In this document: positions 1 through 63,183 of the stretch, in pieces
How the letters are laid out: each line of letters begins with the position of its first letter
Position numbering within the stretch: position 1 is the stretch's first letter
Origin: a virus
IMG/VR virus record: IMGVR_UViG_3300038701_001169
Span: 1 to 64,000 of that record
Length of the DNA: 64,000 bases
Strand: one strand, 5' to 3'
Notes under the pieces: generated by a model
What the model was told of the DNA's origin: nothing
The model's input: only the letters and a program-made list of their open reading frames with translations
The model's database searches: none
Position numbers and translations under genes: made by a program

Positions 1-416
1 TACCGAGAACGCTTCGAGACGAATATGACCACCTAGTCATAAAGAACCCTTATATGCGCCCTAAACGGTCATTTAGTAACTACATAAGTGCCTGGAAATA
101 AGCAAGTTATAAACACGTAAGGCGATACAAGCCCGTGCCCGAAATCATTGAGGGGGTGCGGTGAAAATTTACTCCAAGCGTCCCGCAGATAACTACCATT
201 TTTCTAAAATTTTATGTACATAAACCCCTGACTATGAACTAAATGTTACTGAGCGACATTTAGCAGCCCTAAAAAATATTTTATAAAATTTTTCTAGAAT
301 ATTTACCTACTTCGTTCATGTAACTTATTAAAAATGAACAGTTTACATAAGGTATAAATCATGATATATGTAAAATACTCTAGTACAATAAGTTACGTAT
401 ACCGTAGGCTCTGTCT

Positions 417-438
417 CGCGCGTGCGCACCTGCGCGCG
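417..438. repeat. 22-nt block of G/C-rich alternating sequence (cgcgcgtgcgcacctgcgcgcg) in an AT-rich intergenic region
   Basis: Read directly. It contains the palindrome TGCGCA flanked by GCGCG/CGCGC and lies about 40 nt upstream of promoter-like motif R1. Confidence 0.5.
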
Positions 439-478
439 TAAGTAACTATTTATAAGTAATTTACAGGAAAACCACCTT

Positions 479-502
479 AAAATACACCCTCTATAGGAAT
501 AC
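479..502 (+). promoter_or_regulatory. candidate phage single-subunit RNAP promoter, copy R1
   Basis: AAAATACACCCTCTATAGGAATAC. It is 21/24 identical to the minus-sense copy at 54900-54923. The CCCTC..CTATAGG core resembles T3/T7/SP6 promoters. It sits 24 nt upstream of the first + strand ORF. Confidence 0.5.
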
Positions 503-2574: not shown

Positions 2575-2626
2575 CATGTATACAAAAACCCATAAATGTA
2601 TACACATCTATAAAACATGTATACAC
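2575..2626 (+). promoter_or_regulatory. three phased copies of ATGTATACA (palindrome TGTATACA)
   Basis: Copies start at 2576, 2596 and 2617 (20-21 bp spacing), between tRNA-Thr and the TerL start. Confidence 0.45.
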
Positions 2627-4695: not shown

Positions 4696-6255
4696 ATGAT
4701 AAAAGAAATTACCAAGTTCCTTGGAGGTCTCAGGAGAAAAAGAGATACTTCTCCTACAGGAGAAAAACTTCCTCCAACCCCTAAAGGAATACCTGAAGAA
4801 AAAGGAAGTGCAGGACTCAATATGTTCGGGGGACTCGAAAGAAAGAACGAGGACCACCCGGTCGAAGTCAGTGGACTATCAGGAGCCACTAAATTCTTTA
4901 GACAGATGACAAAAGACCCCACTATCGGAGGTTCTTTACAGATGTATACATCGATCTGTCAAATGGCTCAATGGCATGCAGAGTCAGCAACAGACGATAA
5001 AAAACCTGGATGGTCTGACGAAGAAGCGGATAAGAGTAAAATCTTCCTTGAGGAATGTATTAAAGATATGCAAGGAAGTATGAACGACATAGTTAGTCAA
5101 GTACTAGATATGTTAGTTCACGGATTCCACATTACAGTTCCTCAGTTTAAATTTCGTCAGGGACCAGACCAAGAAGACCCTAGACGACGATCCAGATACA
5201 ATGACAATAAAATCGGCTGGAATTACTGGAAGAGTATAGACCCTTATTCTGTGTATAGGTGGGACACACCTCGGGGAGAAGGGTACAGCTTACTAAAAGG
5301 CATTCAGCAACAAACAATATCAGGTTTCTCAGGATATATTGAGAGAGACAGAATGCTCTTGTTTAGAACTACAGCAAAGAACGACTCACCTTCAGGGGAA
5401 TCAGTTCTAGTTTCTGCTGTAGAGCCTTGGGAAGAGAAGAAAAGATCTGCGAATATAGAACTAACCGGCCTAGAGAGGAATCTTGAAGGGATACCTGTAT
5501 TTGATGTACCTGCAGCTTATTTAAGTGAGCACGCTACTGAAGAGCAAAAAGCAATTGTTCAGTACATTAAAAAAGCAGGGACATCCTTAAAATACAATAA
5601 TCAAACTTATATGTTGCGTCCTTCAGACAGGGACGATAACGGACATAGGCTTATAGACTTAGAGCTATTGAGTACTTCGGGAACAACAAGACCTGAAGCA
5701 GCAAGAGCTATTGTAGAAGCTAAAGAAAGACTTATAGCTGAAGCTGTACTCAGTCAGTTCCTAAAACTAGGGTCTAGTTCAGGTAGTTACGCGCTAAGTT
5801 CAGACATGACCGACTTATTTGTACTGGTTCTTAAAACTTATGTAGATCACATCAAAGAAGTCATTAACTCAGAAGCAATTCCCTACCTTTTCAAACTTAA
5901 TAAAATGGACATGCGTTACCTGCCTAGAATGGAGTACTCTGGACTAGAAAAGGATAATGTATCAGAGTGGATGAACTCTTTGTCTCAAGTAGCTAACGCT
6001 AACCTAATAGTCCCTTCTAAAGAAATCCAAGACGAGATCCTAGAAAGACTAGACCTACCTAAAGAAGAAGCAGGTAAGAAATGGGACGAGATAGAGAAAA
6101 TTAGAGATGATCTAGCTGAAAAGTTTTCACAAGCTGAAGAAGGTGCTCAAGCAGTTAAAGGTGCAGGTTCAGGTAAGAACAATGACGCTAACGGATCTGT
6201 AAGCCCTAAAGAAGGTTCTCCAGTACAGTCAATAATTAAGAAACTAACTAAGTAA
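4696..6255 (+). CDS. portal protein (Mu gp29/DUF935-like)
   Basis: 519 aa, immediately after TerL. The N-terminal region resembles DUF935 portals as recalled from memory. Confidence 0.7.
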   Translation: MIKEITKFLGGLRRKRDTSPTGEKLPPTPKGIPEEKGSAGLNMFGGLERKNEDHPVEVSGLSGATKFFRQMTKDPTIGGSLQMYTSICQMAQWHAESATDDKKPGWSDEEADKSKIFLEECIKDMQGSMNDIVSQVLDMLVHGFHITVPQFKFRQGPDQEDPRRRSRYNDNKIGWNYWKSIDPYSVYRWDTPRGEGYSLLKGIQQQTISGFSGYIERDRMLLFRTTAKNDSPSGESVLVSAVEPWEEKKRSANIELTGLERNLEGIPVFDVPAAYLSEHATEEQKAIVQYIKKAGTSLKYNNQTYMLRPSDRDDNGHRLIDLELLSTSGTTRPEAARAIVEAKERLIAEAVLSQFLKLGSSSGSYALSSDMTDLFVLVLKTYVDHIKEVINSEAIPYLFKLNKMDMRYLPRMEYSGLEKDNVSEWMNSLSQVANANLIVPSKEIQDEILERLDLPKEEAGKKWDEIEKIRDDLAEKFSQAEEGAQAVKGAGSGKNNDANGSVSPKEGSPVQSIIKKLTK

Positions 6256-8118: not shown

Positions 8119-8146
8119 ACCAAATAACCAAATAACCAAATAACCA
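8119..8146 (+). repeat. three tandem ACCAAATA units in the capsid-gene leader
   Basis: accaaataaccaaataaccaaataacc read directly, 19 nt upstream of the ATG at 8165. Confidence 0.8.
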
Positions 8147-8164
8147 ACCACCAAAGGACATATT

Positions 8165-11505: not shown

Positions 11506-11576
11506 ACATACACGACCAATCACCCGCTAGATCCTAGATCAGCAAAAACCAAATAACCATAAACCAAGGAAACGGA

Positions 11577-13173: not shown

Positions 13174-13256
13174 TACCTCCTCGGAACTCCTCTAATTTAT
13201 AGGGGAGGCTCCGAAAACTCGTTACACCAAATAACCAAGACCAAGGAACAGAATAA

Positions 13257-23699: not shown

Positions 23700-23738
23700 G
23701 ACCAAATAAACCAAACCAATTTAACCAAGGACTGTTTT

Positions 23739-26040: not shown

Positions 26041-26324
26041 TGGAACCAGGCACATTAATAGCTGTAGTAGCCTTAGTACTCAGCCTGTTGGGTCCACTCG
26101 TGGGAAGATTATTTAGAAAAGACGATGCCCGTGTTGAGAAACTTCAAGGAGATGTAGAATCCCTAAAAAGAGACCTTGACAGGTACAAACTGACAGCAGC
26201 AAAGAACGAAGGCCTAAGCGAGTCTCTGAAGGAGATTTTGGAACTTAAATTCAAAGGTCTTGAAGACAATTTAAATACCAAGATAACAGCTATGCAAATA
26301 ATGCTAGAACAGTTAACAAAGTAA
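26040..26324 (+). CDS. N-terminally membrane-anchored coiled-coil protein (i-spanin- or holin-like)
   Basis: TM segment LIAVVALVLSLLGPLVG followed by coiled coil. Its ATG overlaps the upstream TAA. Confidence 0.5.
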   Translation: MEPGTLIAVVALVLSLLGPLVGRLFRKDDARVEKLQGDVESLKRDLDRYKLTAAKNEGLSESLKEILELKFKGLEDNLNTKITAMQIMLEQLTK

Positions 26325-26392
26325 AATAGAAAATAAAACCCCTGATACATTGTACATTATGTACGTGTATCAGGGGTTTTATTTTCTATTTT
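26323..26392. terminator. bidirectional terminator: perfect 27-bp inverted repeat
   Basis: Arms at 26323-26349 and 26366-26392. The core CCCCTGATACA/TGTATCAGGGG is flanked by A-runs and T-runs. It lies between the convergent blocks. Confidence 0.8.
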
Positions 26393-26553
26393 ACGTGGAT
26401 AAGTAATTTTTTATCCGTTCTAGAGTCTACAAAGCTTATTTCTCGTTCTTTTCCGTCAACTATAGCAACTACTTCAGGAGTAATTACTCTACCGTTTTTA
26501 TCTACATTAGATCCAGCGCACATAGTAAGACGAACGAATTCTGATAAGTCCAT
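26386..26553 (-). CDS. hypothetical 55-aa protein (below the track cutoff)
   Basis: Hand translation: MDLSEFVRLTMCAGSNVDKNG.... Its ATG overlaps the upstream TAA, and its stop lies in the terminator arm. Confidence 0.4.
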   Translation of the reverse strand: MDLSEFVRLTMCAGSNVDKNGRVITPEVVAIVDGKEREISFVDSRTDKKLLIHVK

Positions 26554-38606: not shown

Positions 38607-38632
38607 ATAAGTCCTTGGTTATTTGGTTTGGT

Positions 38633-38875
38633 TTATTTGGTGTTGGTTATTTGGTAGGTATAGTTTTCAGCAAGTCCCATACATGTAAGGTGTTCGTTGA
38701 TTCCTTCTCTCGACCAGGTTCGTCCAGACTCTTTATGGATTAGTGTCCAAGCATCTCTAAGTCCTCTTTCCGGCTCAAAGATAAATCGAATTTCGAACAG
38801 GTTATTGTAGTAATGAAGGTATCCGTAGTCTTCGTGATAATTGGTCGTGGTTTCAGGTTCTTTAGTCCAGTCCAT
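38633..38875 (-). CDS. hypothetical protein
   Basis: ORF track. Confidence 0.5.
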   Translation of the reverse strand: MDWTKEPETTTNYHEDYGYLHYYNNLFEIRFIFEPERGLRDAWTLIHKESGRTWSREGINEHLTCMGLAENYTYQITNTK

Positions 38876-40256: not shown

Positions 40257-41171
40257 TTAGAACAATTGAGAGAGGTGATCTTTGACTCTAAGTGTAGTGA
40301 AGTTATTTAGAACTTTATAATCGATCTTAGGGTTCTTGAATTTTTTGATAAAGTCCCATGAGTGTTCACGTACAAGGTCGTAGAAAACGGTGTGAAGAAG
40401 TCTAGGAATCATTTTAGAGGACCATCCTTCGGACTCAGTAACAATGTTAGAATAAACCTTGTCTATGATATCGTCAGTAAGGAATTGATTTATGATCTTT
40501 TCTTCTACGTAATCTGAGCCTTTACATTTAGGAGGGCCGTCCGCTTTTCTGTGCTTTTGTTTAAAGTCTGCAGTGACTATTTTAGCCCATGTCTGTCTAC
40601 CGTACTTGTTCACAAAATCGTAGTTCTTAATTACTACTCCTTCTCCTTTACCTTCCCCGTCCTTAATCAAATAGTCATTATCTTCTAGACACTTGTACAG
40701 GTTTTCTGTAGTAGGGTTTTTAATAACCCTCATAGGAACTATGTAGTCAGTGTAGACCATTTTGTCTAAAAGTACTTTATAATCTTCGTAGTGTACGTGA
40801 GTGCCGTCTTGTTTAACTACATCGAAGATATAGAACTTGCGCCATGCTTCTTTTTCGTATGTCTTTAAAGTGTGAGGTACTAACCACTCTCCGTATACAT
40901 GGCAATTAGGGTAGAACGTATCTAAGTAAGATACTGTATCTAATAAATTATAGTTACTTGAAGCCCATTCCATAAACCCGGCATTGTCTTTGCTTAGTGT
41001 TAGTTGTCTCTTACGACTCCCGAACTTTATTAAATTGTCTTCTCGATCAAGCCATACATGAGCGTTGGTTCCATCTATCTTTGGGAATATGTAGCAGTCA
41101 CCTAGTTCGATTCCTTCTACTTCTGTATTCCCTAGTTTTTCTACATGTTGGTATTTTCTATATTCGGTCAT
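40257..41171 (-). CDS. Rnl2-like RNA ligase (nucleotidyltransferase motif I KIDGTN)
   Basis: YRKYQHVEKL...FPKIDGTNAHVW resembles the Rnl2 N-terminus including KxxGxN. 304 aa. Confidence 0.55.
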   Translation of the reverse strand: MTEYRKYQHVEKLGNTEVEGIELGDCYIFPKIDGTNAHVWLDREDNLIKFGSRKRQLTLSKDNAGFMEWASSNYNLLDTVSYLDTFYPNCHVYGEWLVPHTLKTYEKEAWRKFYIFDVVKQDGTHVHYEDYKVLLDKMVYTDYIVPMRVIKNPTTENLYKCLEDNDYLIKDGEGKGEGVVIKNYDFVNKYGRQTWAKIVTADFKQKHRKADGPPKCKGSDYVEEKIINQFLTDDIIDKVYSNIVTESEGWSSKMIPRLLHTVFYDLVREHSWDFIKKFKNPKIDYKVLNNFTTLRVKDHLSQLF

Positions 41172-41186
41172 GGTTATTTGGTCTCT

Positions 41187-41241
41187 GGTCTTTGGTCTTT
41201 GGTCTTTGGTCTTTGGTCTTTGGTCTTTGGTCTTTGGTCTT
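41187..41241. repeat. about 8 tandem copies of the heptamer GGTCTTT (AAAGACC in the gene sense) in the RNA-ligase leader
   Basis: Read directly, with unit starts at 41187, 41194, 41201, 41208, 41215, 41222, 41229 and 41236. Confidence 0.85.
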
Positions 41242-41950
41242 GGTTATTTAGTTGGTTATTTGGATATAAAGTCCTAAGTGAGTTATTGAGTGTCAGTTGG
41301 GTACTGGCTGCCTTCAGAGCATCCTCCTACGAGACAACTGTTTGTCTTCCCTGATCACGTCTCTAGTATTACCTCCTCCCTCTCCACGAGGGTCGGCCTT
41401 GAGGTACTTGAGGGATGTCTCCCATACCTCTCCACCGTCTTAGGACTAAGGACAACGTATGGGATTCGAACCCCGAAGCTGCATACTTCTACCCGAGCAC
41501 CTATCCTGGTTACTCTACGTTGTCGTGCCTTAATTCGATAAGATCTACATTCCTATCTTTTCGGGACTTGATACAGATGTAAGGCCTCTTGTTTACCTGT
41601 ATTTTCTAGAGAAATACACTAACTGCTAATAGTTAACGGGAACTAGCTTCCCTCTACCAGATACGTGGGGTAGTCCACGTGTAGATTGATAAAGTACAGA
41701 GTAGGTTTTTCACCTACGAAATAAACTCTTTCTATCGAGCCACCTTACATTATCTCCGCTTGCTATTGTGTGCGGTCTGGTTTCCTGTACTGGGTTGATT
41801 CTTCAGAAGGGCTCAACCAAGCCTGTGAGTTTATAGACACTTAGGTCTGATTTTATCTCTTAGAGGTCTTGCTCTGACCACCGTCCCGTTTGCCTGCACG
41901 TCTTATCGGGACCTTCATTCAAGGGTGCAGTCCAGTGTTTAAAACGGACT

Positions 41951-42371: not shown

Positions 42372-42482
42372 TGAATAGGGTAGGATTCGAACCTACGACT
42401 TTCGGTGTTCGGTCTATCTATTTATCATGAATATTTTTAATAAACCCATCGATGCGATGCTCTACCACTGAGCTACCTATTC
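42372..42482 (-). ncRNA. tRNA-like gene 1 (canonical acceptor, D and T arms; 62 nt where 23 are expected)
   Basis: Acceptor GAATAGG/CCTATTC, D arm GCTC-AGTGGTA-GAGC, T arm GTAGG-TTCGAAT-CCTAC. I found no 5-7-5 anticodon arm by hand. Confidence 0.6.
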
Positions 42483-42787: not shown

Positions 42788-42917
42788 TGCAAGGAGTAGG
42801 ATTCGAACCTACGCGATAGTTGACTAGACTTATCTGGACTAGGGACTAAAAGTAGTCAAATAATAGTTCCTATTCCTACCGGGCTTGTCCCGAGCTCTAC
42901 CACTGAGCTACCCTTGC
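42788..42917 (-). ncRNA. tRNA-like gene 3 (81 nt between the D and T arms)
   Basis: Acceptor GCAAGGG/TCCTTGC, D arm GCTC-AGTGGTA-GAGC, T arm GTAGG-TTCGAAT-CCTAC. The first internal hairpin CGGG-ACAAG-CCCG has a 5-nt loop. Confidence 0.6.
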
Positions 42918-54640: not shown

Positions 54641-54838
54641 TTAAGCAGATAAAAGCTCTTCATTCTCGAAGACAGGTACATGCCCGTAGGTCGAACTTAT
54701 CTTTTCCAGAATGTATTCTTTGTCGTTACATGCGCCTTTTCCTATAGTCACGAATTCTGACTGATCGAAAAATCCTATTTGGTACTTGATAATATCTGTT
54801 CCTGGTTGAGGATATAGATGTAGTTCTAATAGGTTCAT
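54641..54838 (-). CDS. hypothetical protein (first gene of the minus block)
   Basis: AAGGAG followed by ATG, 68 nt downstream of promoter-like motif R2. Confidence 0.5.
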   Translation of the reverse strand: MNLLELHLYPQPGTDIIKYQIGFFDQSEFVTIGKGACNDKEYILEKISSTYGHVPVFENEELLSA

Positions 54839-54899: not shown

Positions 54900-54923
54900 G
54901 TATTCCTATATAGGGTGCACTTT
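54900..54923 (-). promoter_or_regulatory. candidate phage single-subunit RNAP promoter, copy R2
   Basis: In the minus sense it reads AAAGTGCACCCTATATAGGAATAC, 21/24 identical to R1. Confidence 0.5.
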
Positions 54924-55072: not shown

Positions 55073-56626
55073 GTGTTTAATTTGAAGTGTTTTATATACT
55101 GCCGTGTAAGTAGAGACGATAATACTAAATCATCGGGACGTACTAGGAACTCTATTAAAAATCAGGAGAGGATTTGTAGAGAGTACGCTATACGCAACAA
55201 TATACATATCTTGGATACCTTCTTAGATAATGATGTCTCAGGTACGCTGTACCCTGAAGATAGACCTGCTATGTCTAAGATGTGGTCTAGGTTAGATGAG
55301 GTTGATTGTATTTTAGTTTTGGATGCAAGCAGAACAAATAGAAATACAGGAGTGGCTGAATACATTTTAAGAACTTTAGTTGATAAAGGTATAGATCTTT
55401 TAGGTGCTGGGGAAAGGATAGACATTCAAAGCCCTCAAGGTAGAATGATTTTCAAGATCATGAATGTAGTTAATGAAAATTCAGTCAGTGTATCTAGAGA
55501 AAAGTCTATAAGTAGCTTACAAGACATGGCTAGGAAGGGAGAGCTGGCGTTGAATCCATTTACTTATGGTTTCGAGTCTATAGGCAAGAACAAGGTATCT
55601 AAAATAGACTCAGAGATTTCTGTAGTTAAAAAGATATTCGATTTATGTTTAAAAGGAATGTCTACTACTCAGATCTCTTCTTTCCTTAACGATAGAGGAT
55701 ATACGACCAGGAACGGTTGTAAGTGGAGAGCTCGGACTATCTGGTCTATAATTAGGAACCCTAGATTCAAAGGGAAAATTTATCTACCTAAACCGCTTCC
55801 GGAAGGAGTTAAGAGGAAACGTATAGACAGGGATCGATGTATATACGATTCTCCTTTTCCTGTGGTCATTCCTGAAAAGACTTGGGAGTTAACTCAAATA
55901 GCTCTTAGCTCAAGGAGTAAAGGTGCAGTTGCTTCTAGATCCCATAACTTACTATCAGGAGTTTTTAAGTGTTTTTATTGTGGGTGTGGGTACGGCTTTC
56001 AAAAAAGAATTAACAAACAGTCTACTTATTTTTGTTTAGGAAAAAGGGTAAAGAGGTCTTGCTCCTCTATAGCTATTCATTCAAGTGCAGATGATTTATT
56101 CGATAATTTCTTTAGTCTTGCTTTAATGAAGGATATGATTGTTTCAGGTAAAAAAGACAACGAGGTTTCTAAGTTGTTATTAGAGCAGGATTCTCTACAT
56201 AAGAAGATCAGTCAAATAGAGGCAAACGTACTTCAGGACCCGGACAGTGCTAAGCTCCTAATGAAAGTTCATTCGAACGCAGAAAAAAGATTAGAGGAGT
56301 TGAACATAGAGCTATCTAGTCACAAAGCTGAATTAGTGCATGGCACTGCAGATTCTCAAAAAAGAAAGATGTATAACTCGTTATCAAATAAAGATAAGAA
56401 CTTGATGCTTAAACAGGATGCAGAGATCTTGGTGATCGATGAGTGGTTCATAGTCAGTTTAAACAAGCAGGAAGATACTTTTACGCATATAGGTAAGTTT
56501 GTTAAAAAAGTAACTTATAAATCAAAGAACGATAAAAATATGAAGGCTTGGGTTCCTGTATTTCGTCCAAGTGAATTTGATAGTGGAATACCAGAGAAAG
56601 TACTGGCTATCTTCTCTAAGAAATAA
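55073..56626 (+). CDS. large serine recombinase (integrase)
   Basis: GTG start. N-terminal catalytic region IYCRVSRDD, followed by recombinase and zinc-ribbon regions (CFYCGC...C) and a coiled coil. 517 aa. Confidence 0.75.
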   Translation: MFNLKCFIYCRVSRDDNTKSSGRTRNSIKNQERICREYAIRNNIHILDTFLDNDVSGTLYPEDRPAMSKMWSRLDEVDCILVLDASRTNRNTGVAEYILRTLVDKGIDLLGAGERIDIQSPQGRMIFKIMNVVNENSVSVSREKSISSLQDMARKGELALNPFTYGFESIGKNKVSKIDSEISVVKKIFDLCLKGMSTTQISSFLNDRGYTTRNGCKWRARTIWSIIRNPRFKGKIYLPKPLPEGVKRKRIDRDRCIYDSPFPVVIPEKTWELTQIALSSRSKGAVASRSHNLLSGVFKCFYCGCGYGFQKRINKQSTYFCLGKRVKRSCSSIAIHSSADDLFDNFFSLALMKDMIVSGKKDNEVSKLLLEQDSLHKKISQIEANVLQDPDSAKLLMKVHSNAEKRLEELNIELSSHKAELVHGTADSQKRKMYNSLSNKDKNLMLKQDAEILVIDEWFIVSLNKQEDTFTHIGKFVKKVTYKSKNDKNMKAWVPVFRPSEFDSGIPEKVLAIFSKK

Positions 56627-56754
56627 AAGAGGCCGAGCGGAACCACCCAACTCGGCCAAACCAAATAACCGTAACCAAGACCATAAGGACTAGATTAGGT
56701 AATGCGGGAACCACCCCGCAACCAAATATAGACTTAACTTAGTCCTTATTCAAT

Positions 56755-59625
56755 CTAAGAAACGAAGTATTGTGAGTCGAATATACAAGACATATCTAGG
56801 TCTCCTTGTTCGATTTCCCAGTCTGATACACCATTAGCCTCTATGGCCTCTTCTTCACTCATGTGAGAATAGGTGTCTAATACTTCTGTGTTAATAAGTT
56901 CTTTGCATTCTTCCCAGGTATTTGTTTCAGTTACTTCTAAGCACCAGTCACGTATAAGATTTTTACCGTTGAATATCTCATAGGCTGCTTCTCGAACAGA
57001 TAGGTTTAAATCGTCCACCCACTCGCACAGAGTTCCGTAACTATCGTGTACAAGTTTCAGGAAATTAACGCCTTTCTCTTTGCACTTTAGAACTGTCATC
57101 ATTAGTAGAGAAGCGTCTAGGCTATGGATGAAATCAGGAGCCATAGCATTAGCCATTTTTACCCCGTGCATTTTACCTGTTGGCTCTAAGTAGGTTGATT
57201 TAAGTCTTCCTTTTTCATAAACTACTTCGCTTTCTCCTTGACTGTTCTTGTGTATTTTTCTTTTAGGGAAGTTGACAAATATTTCATCTCTTTCCATTCT
57301 CTCAGTAGCTCTAAACGCCTTAAACCCAACCGGCGTAGTCCATTTGATAGGCTTGTTTTTACGTGCTAGGAACCTGGCTACTTTTTGAATCAGGTTCATG
57401 CCAGTGGTTGCGCATTTAGCAGCCTTCTTTAGGGCGTATGTAATTATGTGAGCGAAACACTGAGTAGCTAACTTATCACAAGAGAAGTTCACCTGCATGT
57501 CAGTAATTGCTTCTTTCGAATATTTCCTAATGCCTTCATGAGTTAGTCCGTATGTTAAGCACATAACGGGTCTTTTTGTATGTGATCTATTTATACCGTG
57601 TTCTCTAAACTGCTTTAGGATTTCTATTTTCTCTTGTCTAAAGTCGTTGCCTTCTTTATCTTTTTTGTCTAAGAGCATTTCGACAGCAGGGTTACTAAAG
57701 TCACCTAACATATTGTTAAGATTGCTGGCTAGTTCATCGCTTAATTCATCTGTGCATTCACCTTCTAACACTATCCTCATCATTTCATCTGCAGTATCTT
57801 TGTAGATGTCTTGAGGACATTCTGTAGGGCTTACATTGACACTGTGAGCGACCTGACTATCTAAGTAAAGCATGGCGTATATCTGAATACCTGAGCAAGT
57901 AGCATCTAAATCTACGCTTACATGAGATCTGTGAGTCTCTTTATTCCTATTGTATGCTGTGTAGTCTTTGATTGCTTTTAGGAATTGAACAGGTTCCTCT
58001 GCTTTAGTCCACTCATTGTATTTTGCTGGATTCATGGCCATTGATTGAAACGTTCCCCAGTTCTGACGAACAAACTCAGCTCTTTGATCCAGTGTCATTT
58101 TGTCTGTAGATTTAGTTACGCCGTCGTGTGTTTCTGTCTGTCCCCAGAGGGTAGCTATATTGACTCTAAGCCAGTAAGCACCTCTCTCTGATACTTTGCA
58201 GCCTATGGAGGATTTCAGAATGCCTTTACTAAGGTCGTTGATCTGGGGGTGTAGTGTCGTCGATAACGGGTAGGACCTTCCTCTCTTGTCACAGTTGTGA
58301 GGGAAGAAAAGTTCTGCGTACTCCTGAAGATTTGAGGCAGTCTCTAAGGATCTCATTGACGCACTGCACTTAGATACATTCCCTTTCTTCTTTTTTAGAA
58401 TCTTGAACCAGTGTGAGATGTATCTGTTGTGTACTAATTCGTCCCAGGAGTTGTCACCTTCCTGCTGCCTTTCCTCTTTGTATTTATTACACACATCTAC
58501 AAACTCTCGTTCAGTGTCGAATAACTTTCTTAGTGGAGGTTTTGGTGGAAGGTCTACAGTTGTACTTATTCCAGGTATCTCTACACCTTTTTCTATACAC
58601 TCTAAGATGGAAACCAACATTTCTGTGTCAACCGTATATCTACTTGACTCAATATGATCTATAGCTTCATATACTTTAGGCATCTCATCTACAGAGTGAT
58701 CTTCTTTAAAGTATTTAAACTTGCTTGGGTTCTCTTCGTCCTTGTACTGGTACTTTAAGTTCCTTACTAAAGGATGTCCGTATCTAGAGGGGGAGGTATA
58801 TTGTACAGGTCTACGTATACTAGGTATCTGACAACCTTTAGTGTAGAGTAGGTTAGTAGACATCATTTCTTGAGCTTTATCGTAGTACTCAGGAGTCATT
58901 TGTATGTATGGTATCGTTACAATTAGGTCTCCGTTTTTTCTAGATCTCTTTTTAGTTAGCTCTATTACTTCAAACATATTAGAGTTGTCTAAGATGAACA
59001 TAACTAGCTGAGCACCTACTTCCATTCCAGTTTTATTTCTAGCTTTGTATACTTTATCTTGGTCACGTACACCATAAGCAAAGAAAAGTAGTTCTGATCT
59101 AGAGAGTAGCTTAAATCCTTTTTTGTCTTTATTGATGTATTGCTCTTGTTCTTTGTCAGCCAACAATTTTGGACCTAAAACACTCCCTATGTTGGATATG
59201 ATCGTCCTTCTCATGACTTTTGTAGTGTCTTCCTGAGACAAACATGAATTCATGAAGTGAGTAAGAGAAATAAGTACTAATTCCCTACATCTTGATAGGT
59301 GGTTGTCTTTGTGGTTAGGATATGTGTTGCAGAATCTGCTTAGGTATTTGGATTTTGTTTTTGTAGTGTTTAGGTAGTTTTGGAATTTGTTGGATAGCTC
59401 CCATACTTCTTCTTTAATTAATTGTATTCCGGTTCTTGTACTGGCTCCGTTATTGGTTTTGTACAGAGTGTCTAGATTGTCTTGAAGTAAGTCCTTACTG
59501 ATTTCTTTTTGCTTCGTTTGATATAACTTAACCTCCTCTATGTCAGGGTATCTCTTCTCTCCGTCCCAGTTAGGAGTTCTAGTTATTTCTGCTATTGAGT
59601 TTCGAATTGTGTCCCTTTCGGTCAT
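56755..59625 (-). CDS. T7-like single-subunit DNA-dependent RNA polymerase
   Basis: DATCSGIQ (T7 DGSCSGIQ), HTKRPVMCLTYG (T7 VTKRSVMTLAYG), PDFIHSLDAS (T7 PNFVHSQDGS), LVHDSYGT (T7 IHDSFGT). Confidence 0.85.
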   Translation of the reverse strand: MTERDTIRNSIAEITRTPNWDGEKRYPDIEEVKLYQTKQKEISKDLLQDNLDTLYKTNNGASTRTGIQLIKEEVWELSNKFQNYLNTTKTKSKYLSRFCNTYPNHKDNHLSRCRELVLISLTHFMNSCLSQEDTTKVMRRTIISNIGSVLGPKLLADKEQEQYINKDKKGFKLLSRSELLFFAYGVRDQDKVYKARNKTGMEVGAQLVMFILDNSNMFEVIELTKKRSRKNGDLIVTIPYIQMTPEYYDKAQEMMSTNLLYTKGCQIPSIRRPVQYTSPSRYGHPLVRNLKYQYKDEENPSKFKYFKEDHSVDEMPKVYEAIDHIESSRYTVDTEMLVSILECIEKGVEIPGISTTVDLPPKPPLRKLFDTEREFVDVCNKYKEERQQEGDNSWDELVHNRYISHWFKILKKKKGNVSKCSASMRSLETASNLQEYAELFFPHNCDKRGRSYPLSTTLHPQINDLSKGILKSSIGCKVSERGAYWLRVNIATLWGQTETHDGVTKSTDKMTLDQRAEFVRQNWGTFQSMAMNPAKYNEWTKAEEPVQFLKAIKDYTAYNRNKETHRSHVSVDLDATCSGIQIYAMLYLDSQVAHSVNVSPTECPQDIYKDTADEMMRIVLEGECTDELSDELASNLNNMLGDFSNPAVEMLLDKKDKEGNDFRQEKIEILKQFREHGINRSHTKRPVMCLTYGLTHEGIRKYSKEAITDMQVNFSCDKLATQCFAHIITYALKKAAKCATTGMNLIQKVARFLARKNKPIKWTTPVGFKAFRATERMERDEIFVNFPKRKIHKNSQGESEVVYEKGRLKSTYLEPTGKMHGVKMANAMAPDFIHSLDASLLMMTVLKCKEKGVNFLKLVHDSYGTLCEWVDDLNLSVREAAYEIFNGKNLIRDWCLEVTETNTWEECKELINTEVLDTYSHMSEEEAIEANGVSDWEIEQGDLDMSCIFDSQYFVS

Positions 59626-60160: not shown

Positions 60161-60706
60161 TTATGGTTTGTTATGAATTATTCCGTCTTCTATACTAAAT
60201 GGGACGATAGATCCCCAATCTTTCAAAACTCCTGAGAAGTGTACTTTATCCTCTTTTCTAATATTTAGAGCTTTATTTTTCTCAGAGTCTCTCAGGTGGA
60301 CGATGGCATCTGCTACTAAAGTTGTTCTATTCATTCTTACAGTTATGCTTAACCCCCCTAAAAAAGAATCTTTTATATCTGTAACTGTGCCTGTCCACTT
60401 TATTTTTTTATTCTTGAACTCTTTCCATCTCTCGTCTTTTTGTAAATCAGTATATGAGGATGACACATTATATATTCTATCTAACTCATCCCATGAGACA
60501 GTGTGTTCACGTACCTCGTGTTCGTGTACCTCTTCTGATGAATTAGATCCTTTGCTTTCGGAATACTGATTATATGCACCCAGAATAGCCAATGCAATTA
60601 CTATTACAATGAAGAATCCTACTAAGCCTTGAATCCATTGAGGACACTTACGAAAGGTAGATATAATGCTGTTGTTGTTATTATTGTCAGTAGCTAACTT
60701 GCCCAT
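60161..60706 (-). CDS. membrane-anchored hypothetical protein
   Basis: TM segment GLVGFFIVIVIALAILGAY. Confidence 0.5.
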   Translation of the reverse strand: MGKLATDNNNNNSIISTFRKCPQWIQGLVGFFIVIVIALAILGAYNQYSESKGSNSSEEVHEHEVREHTVSWDELDRIYNVSSSYTDLQKDERWKEFKNKKIKWTGTVTDIKDSFLGGLSITVRMNRTTLVADAIVHLRDSEKNKALNIRKEDKVHFSGVLKDWGSIVPFSIEDGIIHNKP

Positions 60707-61302
60707 TTAGTTTCCTCTTCTTTAAATGCTCTCTTTGTGTATTTCCTCAGTCCTGATACAGATACGTCTAGAGTAAATGCTATTTTATTAACTGAGTAAC
60801 CCATTTTTAGGTACATACTTATTTTACTATGTAACTGCTCATATTTTCCAGTTGATTTTCTACCTAATTTAACACCTTTTGCTTTTCTAGCTGCTAGAGC
60901 TTCTTTTGTTCTTTGAGATATTAGGTCTCTTTCCAGCTCTGAAAAAGCAGATAACATGGTAATCATTAACCTAGACATTGGGTTGTGTTGAGATAGCGTT
61001 AGAGATTGCTTGATAAGTACGACAGTTACTTCTTTGCTTAGTAGTTCATCTATCAGTATTATTATCTCCGCAGTCTTTCGTCCCAGTCTTGAAAGCTCTG
61101 ATACTACTAACATGTCTCCTTTGTTAAGGGAGTCTAGTAAGTGGTTTATTTTTCTTTTTTCCTGAGATTTTCGAGTAGACATCTCTACAGCTATTTCACG
61201 GTCTATAGATATATTGTTACTCTTACAGTAGTTAAGTATCTCGAATCTTTGATTATCTACAGTTTGCTTTTCTGTACTTACGCGAATGTATGAGTAGTTC
61301 AT
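60694..61302 (-). CDS. small serine recombinase (resolvase/invertase family)
   Basis: YIRVSTEKQ catalytic-Ser motif, SRLGR, and a C-terminal HTH. 202 aa. Confidence 0.75.
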   Translation of the reverse strand: MNYSYIRVSTEKQTVDNQRFEILNYCKSNNISIDREIAVEMSTRKSQEKRKINHLLDSLNKGDMLVVSELSRLGRKTAEIIILIDELLSKEVTVVLIKQSLTLSQHNPMSRLMITMLSAFSELERDLISQRTKEALAARKAKGVKLGRKSTGKYEQLHSKISMYLKMGYSVNKIAFTLDVSVSGLRKYTKRAFKEEETKWAS

Positions 61303-61375
61303 GAGTGTGTCCTGTTTGGTCTTGGTTATTTGGTTTACATGTAATTATAGCACGCCATTAAGGTATTGTCAATTA

Positions 61376-61639: not shown

Positions 61640-61900
61640 ACGCTTCCCCTTATTGCTTTGTTAATGTGTACTATTAAGCTTACTTTACACGTTAGATGAG
61701 TTTTATCCAGTGTTAGATTGCTTTAAACAGTCCTGTACTTTATATGTTTATACAGTACATTCAAGTAAGGGACATTTGGGTTCCCTGCCGTGTCCCTACC
61801 TAGAAATAATCTACTTTTTATTAAATTTACCTCCTTAATTAGCTGCATTTTTGGTTAGGTTATTTTACAGTTAGTGAGAATGTTATTTCAATATTTCTTA

Positions 61901-61929
61901 TTGACTATTCCTTTATATCAATATATAAT
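61901..61929 (+). promoter_or_regulatory. sigma70-type promoter TTGACT-17 nt-TATAAT
   Basis: Read directly. It lies about 60 nt upstream of the HTH regulator gene. Confidence 0.6.
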
Positions 61930-61989
61930 ACAAGTAATTCAATTAATTCAATTAACATAGGACAGGTATTTGAAACCTGATTTAATAGT

Positions 61990-62415
61990 ATGAGTTACGA
62001 AAAAGACTCCTACAGCTACGTCGTGTCTGTAAAGGTTGTGGACATTCTGCGTAGGTGGATGGAAAAGACTAAAACTAGCCAGACTGGACTTGCTCAGGAA
62101 ATAGGCACTACCCAGTCCGCTGTCCAGAGATGGATGAGTAAGCCTGGTAGTGTAGCTAGAGGCGACCATGCTAGGAGCCTTGAGAAGTTGGTCAATAAGA
62201 TCCAGGATGAGAAGCCTATGGTTCTTGACGGGCGTGTCTATAACCGAATATGTAAGTATAAAGAAGATAAGGATATGTCTATAGAAGAACTCGCTGACTC
62301 TCTTGACATGAGTCTCTACGATTGTATTACTTTGATTGAACGTTTTCATGGAAGTGTGTCTCCCGACTCCTACTTTAAGATAATGAAACTTTATATCGAC
62401 ATCTGCGAAGAGTAA
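61990..62415 (+). CDS. XRE-family HTH transcriptional regulator (CI-like candidate)
   Basis: HTH TSQTGLAQEIGTTQSAVQRWMS. It is divergent from the leftward operon. Confidence 0.6.
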   Translation: MSYEKDSYSYVVSVKVVDILRRWMEKTKTSQTGLAQEIGTTQSAVQRWMSKPGSVARGDHARSLEKLVNKIQDEKPMVLDGRVYNRICKYKEDKDMSIEELADSLDMSLYDCITLIERFHGSVSPDSYFKIMKLYIDICEE

Positions 62416-63132: not shown

Positions 63133-63183
63133 TTGGTTACTTGGTTACTTGGTTACTGGTTACTGGTTACTGGTTACTTGGTC
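63133..63183. repeat. six tandem GGTTAC units (GTAACC in the gene sense) with 1-2 T spacers
   Basis: Read directly, in the leader of the 63121 gene. Confidence 0.85.

Follow-up and report, generated by a model that had tools for sequence, protein, structure and literature searches.

The DNA analyzed here, called the window throughout, is a stretch of 64 kb (positions 1 to 64,000 of IMG/VR record IMGVR_UViG_3300038701_001169) on which two large gene blocks converge. The genome was completed with two Logan contigs from run SRR15330770, which carry the same genes and are identical to the window wherever they overlap it. These contigs also overlap each other, by 30 nt within a tandem repeat, and the genome therefore assembles as a circle of ~69.5 kb. 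All genes of the structural block share one strand and include two tRNAs, the large terminase, a Mu-type portal, a protease, the major capsid, the tail sheath, the tape measure, and baseplate proteins, with the capsid nearest to Shewanella and Colwellia phage capsids (~31%). The replication and nucleotide block, whose genes likewise share a strand, encodes a primase-like protein, a DUF5906 protein, a PD-(D/E)XK nuclease, an SNF2 helicase, an RNA ligase, tRNAs, a methyltransferase, a DNA polymerase, and an exonuclease. Where the blocks meet, a hairpin folds at −58 and −56 kcal/mol on the two strands (z = −12 and −13), with a U run beside it in either transcript direction. Coordinates are collected in Table 1.

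The phage's RNA polymerase gene lies outside these blocks, in an early operon that begins at a consensus σ70 promoter and encodes, in order, a resolvase of 202 aa, an OB-fold protein, an SLT-domain protein, and the polymerase. It ends at two hairpins between the polymerase gene and the convergent integrase gene. The original prediction had placed the polymerase in a separate operon next to a σ70-type promoter region; the separate operon is borne out, but the promoter does not adjoin the gene and lies ~1.7 kb and three genes upstream of it. The integrase sits between the polymerase gene and copy 2 of the motif described below, on the strand opposite to both. A gene for a CI-like HTH_3 protein diverges from the early operon and has its own σ70-type promoter (TTGACT-17-TATAAT at 61901-61929). 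Together, the integrase, a second small resolvase, and the CI-like gene with divergent near-consensus σ70 promoters (61640-62415) form a module of lysogeny type. By its gene content, the phage looks contractile-tailed and is probably temperate, and the promoter of the polymerase operon is of host type and probably controlled by the repressor.

Table 1. Positions of the features discussed in the text, in the window and in related sequences
Feature	Sequence	Position	Strand	Details
Motif copy 1, AAAATACACCCTCTATAGGAATAC	Window	479-502	+	Candidate phage-RNAP promoter heading the structural (late) block; predicted start G496; predicted 5' UTR to ATG 526, 30 nt
Motif copy 2, AAAGTGCACCCTATATAGGAATAC	Window	54900-54923	−	Candidate phage-RNAP promoter heading the replication (middle) block; predicted start G54906; predicted 5' UTR to ATG 54838, 68 nt
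Structural block	Window	526-26324	+	All genes on one strand
Replication/nucleotide block	Window	54838-26767	−	All genes on one strand
Bidirectional terminator hairpin	Window	26313-26402		Convergence of blocks; 37-bp perfect arms, flanking A run and T run
Large serine recombinase (integrase)	Window	55073-56626	+	Resolvase + Recombinase + Zn_ribbon_recom
Two hairpins after polymerase stop	Window	56620-56760	−	Second followed by U run; z = −4.2
T7-type single-subunit RNA polymerase	Window	56755-59625	−	956 aa, unsplit; PF00940
Small resolvase	Window	60694-61302	−	202 aa; first gene of polymerase operon
Consensus σ70 promoter	Window	61344-61372	−	TTGACA-17-TATAAT, TG extension, 12/12 match
CI-like HTH_3 protein	Window	61990-62415	+	141 aa; divergent from early operon
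ACCAAATAACCAA(G)ACCAAGGA leader	Window	8119-8147, 11548-11560, 13226-13238, 23701-23713	+	
ACCAAATAACCAA(G)ACCAAGGA leader	Window	27420, 28290, 32501, 38615-38655, 41170-41264, 43880, 44976, 59660, 61322-61334, 63133-63153	−	
Split polymerase loci	Relatives	L028 2089-5158; L034 5602-8645; L045 8361-11404; L049 33-3152; L050 826-4043		
C-run sites	Relatives	L028 5688-5699, 7439-7452; L034 9170-9183, 11055-11067; L045 11929-11941		
GTAGCTAAGGCAC loci	Relatives	L027 3015-3071; L028 5278-5398; L031 2500-2512; L034 8689-8875; L048 ~2579-2591		

Several stretches around these genes have features of their own. Two tRNA genes on the minus strand (42372-42482 and 42788-42917) score above the Rfam threshold and were missed by ARAGORN. 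They bear insertions of ~39 and ~35 nt at the anticodon loop and lie in a 2.2-kb ORF-free stretch adjoining the RNA ligase gene (40257-41171, minus strand); they may be intron-containing or otherwise processed phage tRNAs. At the head of the structural block, the 27-aa ORF directly after motif copy 1 repeats the N-terminus of ORF 838-1275 in truncated form. A 48-nt direct repeat (532-579 and 844-891, 79% identical) has an 82-aa Cys-rich ORF (606-854) between its two copies, and the region 526-891 looks like an insertion that duplicated its target. Further upstream, a 1.24-kb non-coding region (L004 3830-5070, window about −720 to 525) has divergent early and late genes on either side. It contains four iterons (CTGTTATTCAGTGACATTTAG), GTAAC/AAGTTACA repeats, and a GC-rich palindromic box, TCTCGCGCGTGCGCACCTGCGCGCG, at window 405-440. 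Similar iterons and a similar box occupy the equivalent place in the relatives L039 and L040, and the region is a candidate replication origin and/or packaging site.

The polymerase had been recognized as T7-like from the sequence, and the closer analysis agrees: the protein is complete and, judged by its motifs and predicted fold, looks active. It matches T7 RNAP in the PDB with E=1e-34, and the equivalents of T7 D537, K631, Y639, and H811/D812 are conserved. The genome that carries the motif pair thus also encodes a candidate cognate single-subunit RNAP with intact catalytic motifs. An AlphaFold (AF2) model built with 50 homologues has a mean pLDDT of 89.6 and a pTM of 0.87, and Foldseek matches it to T7 RNAP over the full length (TM 0.74-0.77 normalised to T7, 17% identity). 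In the model, long beta-hairpins at residues 218-243 and 775-819 lie roughly where the intercalating hairpin and the specificity loop would be expected from T7. In a HMMER alignment, which is poor and unreliable in the specificity loop, T7 residues R746 and N748 fall opposite Glu; the base-contact rules of T7 are therefore not transferable. The Pfam RPOL_N domain (PF14700) was not detected in this protein, and no polymerase among GenBank phages is >26% identical to it.

A 24-nt motif heads each of the two large blocks. Its two copies are identical at 21 of 24 positions, both match the 18-mer CACCCTNTATAGGAATAC exactly, and they end 24 nt before the ATG at 526 (copy 1) and 62 nt before the ATG at 54838 (copy 2). 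Both are non-coding and sense-oriented and lie <70 nt 5' of the first gene of their block. Coordinates, strands, identity, and both distances agree with those originally reported. A search of the rest of the genome, which the original prediction had proposed, was run with 18-mer, 24-mer, and 11-mer core patterns and returned no third or weaker copy above chance. The degenerate 24-mer, with up to 3 mismatches allowed, matches copies 1 and 2 only (0 matches in 100 shuffles), and there is no third copy in the extra ~5.5 kb outside the window. The whole circular genome therefore contains exactly two copies; the runners-up match at 17 of 24 positions and are as frequent in shuffled sequence.

The existence of such a pair is not remarkable in itself. 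In shuffled 64-kb sequence, pairs of 24-mers with at least 21 matches occur 0-3 times, i.e. about one is expected, and the real window has more of them than the shuffles, an excess that comes mainly from the terminator hairpin and an unrelated leader repeat. What makes the pair significant is its position at both block heads: for two pre-specified 150-nt regions, we estimate from the shuffle rates a chance expectation of ~1e-5. Among the 20 sense-oriented non-coding stretches of at least 72 nt in the window, the recurring motifs are this one and one unrelated leader motif.

In describing the motif, we took the first G of the GG as +1, a register assumed from the sequence. The segment from −17 to −13 is A/T-rich (AAAAT in one copy, AAAGT in the other) and is followed from −12 to −5 by ACACCCTC and GCACCCTA, i.e. 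(A/G)CACCCT(C/A), of which −11 to −7 is a C-rich CACCC in both copies. Position −7 is thus a C, the base that pairs with a conserved Arg in 91% of T7-like RNAP-promoter pairs (PMC11880802). The melting segment at −4 to −1 is TATA, the same as in T7, and +1/+2 is GG in both copies. From −4 to +7 the copies are identical; their three differences fall at −14, −12, and −5. Copy 2 has a perfect 10-bp palindrome, CCTATATAGG, at its centre, whereas in copy 1 the symmetry covers 8 of 10 positions, and the conserved flanks are asymmetric, with CAC upstream and AATAC downstream. Folding revealed no unusual structure in either predicted 5' UTR. As a conserved, asymmetric repeat of ~20 bp that is non-coding, gene-oriented, and provided with a G start, the motif is a directional element of T7-class architecture with its own specificity region.

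Promoters of the T7/T3/SP6 class are likewise asymmetric, ~23 bp long (about −17 to +6/+7), and A/T-rich in their upstream part, with a specificity region at ~−11 to −7 that includes a C at −7, TATA at −4 to −1, and GG at +1/+2 (PMC11880802). The CCCT(C/A)TATAGG core had been described as close to T3 and T7 promoters. The shared architecture stands, whereas close kinship does not, because CCCTC lies two bases further from the start in T3 than in the window motif and the polymerase shares no more than 17-26% identity with T7-group enzymes. Copy number also differs: T7-like phages typically have ~13 per genome (PMC11880802), and this one has two. In the general T7 scheme, the phage polymerase is made early from a host-type promoter and then takes over (PMC4496689). 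T7 phages are 40-kb, one-directional podoviruses, whereas this genome is ~70 kb, myovirus-type, probably temperate, and arranged in two convergent blocks.

The original suggestion that two strong copies may drive most of the genome holds as to the count, in a layout already known from Syn5. That phage has no more than two promoters, which implies that its enzyme is highly processive (PMC3950665), and Syn5-like genomes have two predicted promoters each on average (PMC11880802). The Syn5 promoter ATTGGGCACCCGTAA, which has been verified experimentally and initiates at G (PMC3950665), has GCACCC in common with the window motif, and the core of the latter is nearer to Syn5 than to T3 or T7. In Syn5, however, CACCC occupies −9 to −5 and is followed by GTAA, whereas in the window it occupies −11 to −7 and is followed by T(C/A)TATA; moreover, Syn5 is a T7-like podovirus, and its polymerase is not close kin of the window's.

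Two other phages offer partial parallels. In the Xanthomonas phage Xp10, early genes, including that of the phage single-subunit RNAP, are transcribed by the host RNAP before the phage enzyme takes over, as summarized in PMC4496689 (citing Semenova et al. 2005). Xp10 is comparable in being a long-tailed phage, other than a T7-type podovirus, with a T7-type RNAP; it differs in being a virulent siphovirus, and no sequence relationship to the window was detected. N4 RNAPII, a heterodimer of gp15 and gp16, has the same split topology as the window's nearest relatives (PMC4496689), whereas the window gene is unsplit. The N-halves of those relatives are ~500-590 aa long and have a full N-terminal domain, compared with 269 aa for gp15, and N4 RNAPII differs further in needing cofactors and in using a minimal A/T-rich promoter from −7 to +2.

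Other signals in the sequence were checked and set aside. Scans for σ70-like sites, with −35 and −10 hexamers 16-18 nt apart, found none in sense orientation at either motif copy. As possible further copies, CAACCCCTAAAGGAATAC at 4775 and AAAATGACCCTTCTATATGGAATC, 923-946 nt upstream of window position 1, were rejected since they lie within the portal gene and an early gene, respectively. The occurrences of TGAACTCTATA(A/T)AA at ~2235 and ~43935 are weak or chance matches; the former precedes a tRNA gene and overlaps a possible σ70-like site, and the latter lies in a probable small ORF (translated by eye). An exact-motif search of IMG/VR gave a single match, inside an unrelated terminase gene, which was discounted.

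The unrelated leader motif, ACCAAATAACCAA(G)ACCAAGGA, is CA-rich and often tandem. It immediately precedes the Shine-Dalgarno sequence in ~15 genes of the early, middle, and late classes, among them those for the capsid, sheath, RNA ligase, and polymerase. One copy (61322-61334) lies between a σ70 −10 element and the start codon. Because it adjoins the Shine-Dalgarno sequence, serves all classes, and in this instance follows the −10 element, we regard it as an RNA leader element, and ACCAAATAACCAA, which lies in 5' UTRs, was rejected as a real promoter. It is a candidate for an unstructured leader that enhances translation. A repeat of this type also contains the circular junction of the genome.

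No close relatives were found in GenBank phages, IMG/VR, or GTDB genomes, and the window's lineage is one without a cultured or GenBank representative; the relatives described here came only from metagenome protein searches. In an exhaustive profile search, the nearest polymerases are 36-46% identical to the window's and are all split into an N-half and a C-half. The split point corresponds to window residues ~497-507, where the window gene is fused with a linker of ~11 residues; in the relatives, the N-half ends after the DxRGR (DxxGR) block, and the C-half carries motifs A-C. The half-genes are adjacent or overlapping and are followed by a terminator, and on the contigs that reach far enough (L027 and L045), the same replication genes lie downstream. 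Heads of the late block were obtained from large-terminase relatives at 54-62% identity. One relative, assembled both as SPKZ01 contigs and as BOEU19 scaffolds (~69 kb), shares the divergent arrangement of early and late genes on either side of an iteron-rich region. More distantly, T7-type polymerase genes at 23-25% identity are present on chromosomal contigs of Rhizobiales, Shimia, Maritalea, and Aminobacter from GTDB (L035-L038), which shows that prophages with such polymerases are widespread in alphaproteobacteria.

The heads of the relatives' gene blocks contain boxes that recall the window motif. In the SPKZ01/BOEU19 relative, an exact repeat of its own, ATACCCCCCCCCTATA, precedes two gene groups that lie after the polymerase. 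One of its copies runs on into AGGAAT, as the window motif does, and CTTATACCCAGTCTATAGCAT lies 40 nt before the first late gene. In another clade, CCCCCACCCCTAAAAAT or CCACCCCCTAAAATATAA precedes the first gene after the polymerase. An unseeded Gibbs sampler, given 11 block-head regions (39-46% identical polymerases), converges on CACCC[CT]CTA[TA]A[GA], a motif that takes in both window sites as well as one in L039, 40 nt before its first late gene; the near identity of the two window sites and low-complexity C runs favor this convergence. Boxes that combine a C-rich segment with TA(T/A)A stand at block heads in L027, L028, L034, L039, and L048 and are individually not significant; in a control, the relatives' best matches to the window 12-mer were equalled in a fraction of 0.03-0.66 of random 150-nt windows from the same loci. 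There is no convincing site in L040 or L043. The spacing from the upstream ATA to TATA in the relatives is 7-10 nt of poly-C, which is unusual for a fixed-register promoter. Their C run comprises 8, 9, or 10 C's, depending on assembly and site, and reflects either hypervariability of the homopolymer or an error of assembly.

Another element, GTAGCTAAGGCAC, is conserved after the polymerase gene in relatives and absent from the window, and it was set aside. It occurs in 2-3 copies per relative (1 in L031 and L048), in a conserved non-coding stretch 3' of the C-half, and resembles the 5' acceptor/D-arm of the tRNA genes next downstream in some relatives. ACCCTCACTTAAG in L031 and AACCCTTATATAG in L034 were discounted because both are inside ORFs. 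The proposed comparison with relatives thus found similar boxes at equivalent places, but not a significance beyond random windows. We consider the relatives' sequences to be compatible with promoter function and mildly supportive of it, not proof.

We propose that the two 24-mers are probably promoters of the phage's own T7-type RNA polymerase, the interpretation given in the original prediction, which is the best supported of those considered and in line with every computational check that we ran. As parts of this proposal, we infer that the enzyme binds the motifs, that it starts at the predicted points, and that the blocks have no other promoter. On infection or induction, the host σ70 polymerase would start at 61372-61344, beside the CI-like repressor gene. 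The early transcript would span the resolvase, OB-fold, SLT-domain, and 956-aa polymerase genes and stop at the 56620-56760 hairpins. The new polymerase would then bind each motif, reading the A/T-rich −17 to −13 segment and (A/G)CACCCT(C/A) at −12 to −5, melt TATA at −4 to −1, and start at the GG (G496 on the plus strand, G54906 on the minus strand). Two transcripts would result, of ~26 kb for the structural genes and ~28 kb for the replication genes, which would converge and stop at the shared hairpin (26313-26402). Since the terminator of the early operon comes before copy 2 and the integrase gene lies on the opposite strand, the replication block needs a promoter of its own. KP34 RNAP recognises two unrelated promoter sequences, as outlined in PMC6834552, and weaker or unrelated further promoters may have been missed by our scans.

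Other explanations of the motif pair can be weighed against the same evidence. We think it unlikely that the motif is a site for a phage activator or repressor and that the host σ70 polymerase transcribes both blocks. Late promoters of P2- and Mu-type myoviruses do use the host σ70 polymerase plus a phage regulator, and the window has myovirus-type structural genes with a Mu-like portal, as well as several small early proteins without assigned function; the palindrome in copy 2, CCTATATAGG, could also suit a dimeric binder. However, the symmetry spans no more than 10 bp, with 8 of 10 positions symmetric in copy 1, and conservation is asymmetric beyond it, there is no acceptable sense −10/−35 pair at or just downstream of either copy, and copy 1 ends just 24 nt before the ATG. 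Such a regulator site would also leave the phage polymerase promoterless, because no other candidate motif exists. A shade less likely again is that the pair is a functionless chance or relic repeat, with the blocks transcribed from other, unrecognised signals. Its appeal lies in the frequency of pairs with at least 21 of 24 matches in shuffled 64-kb sequences (0-3) and in boxes among the relatives that are not individually significant. This is countered by the sense orientation of both copies <70 nt from the block heads (~1e-5 by the estimate from shuffles), by a match that forms a solid 17/18 core, and by four separate features that resemble known single-subunit RNAP promoters.

It is very improbable that the copies are crossover sites of a serine recombinase, either the 202-aa resolvase/invertase or the integrase, arranged as inverted repeats. 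They are indeed inverted relative to each other, the genome has two serine recombinase genes, and in relatives a similar box stands just 5' of a small ORF that is followed by a resolvase gene. Yet the 54-kb segment between the copies contains nearly all essential genes, and its inversion would be functionally neutral. Hix/gix sites have a two-half-site layout of ~26 bp, whereas the dyad symmetry here extends over 10 bp only. In the independent Logan assembly, the breaks fall at tandem repeats (~41.2 and ~65.0 kb) and not at the motifs, and one orientation only is seen. The two boxes in the SPKZ01/BOEU19 relative are direct repeats rather than inverted ones.

To return to transcription by the phage's own polymerase, the scheme of two such promoters is already known from Syn5, and what is unusual here is the genome that carries it, which is ~70 kb, of myovirus type, and equipped with an integrase and a CI-like repressor. 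The larger picture that we draw is tentative, somewhat short of an even chance: the window would be the first genome assembled from an undescribed lineage of marine phages, temperate and contractile-tailed, in which a repressor-controlled σ70 operon yields a T7-type RNAP that runs the entire lytic programme from two promoters, with the RNAP split in sister phages in the topology of N4 RNAPII. The lysis-lysogeny switch would then be amplified through an orthogonal polymerase. If the promoter assignment itself is borne out, Syn5's strategy of an own polymerase with two promoters would extend to a contractile-tailed phage that has an integrase and a CI-like repressor, and a lytic programme of ~54 kb would stand under a single host-dependent step. 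The enzyme and its motif would also make up a very divergent new polymerase-promoter pair, with at most 26% identity to GenBank phage enzymes and a short, clear promoter. Such pairs serve as parts for orthogonal expression and help in tracing the evolution of promoter specificity among these enzymes.
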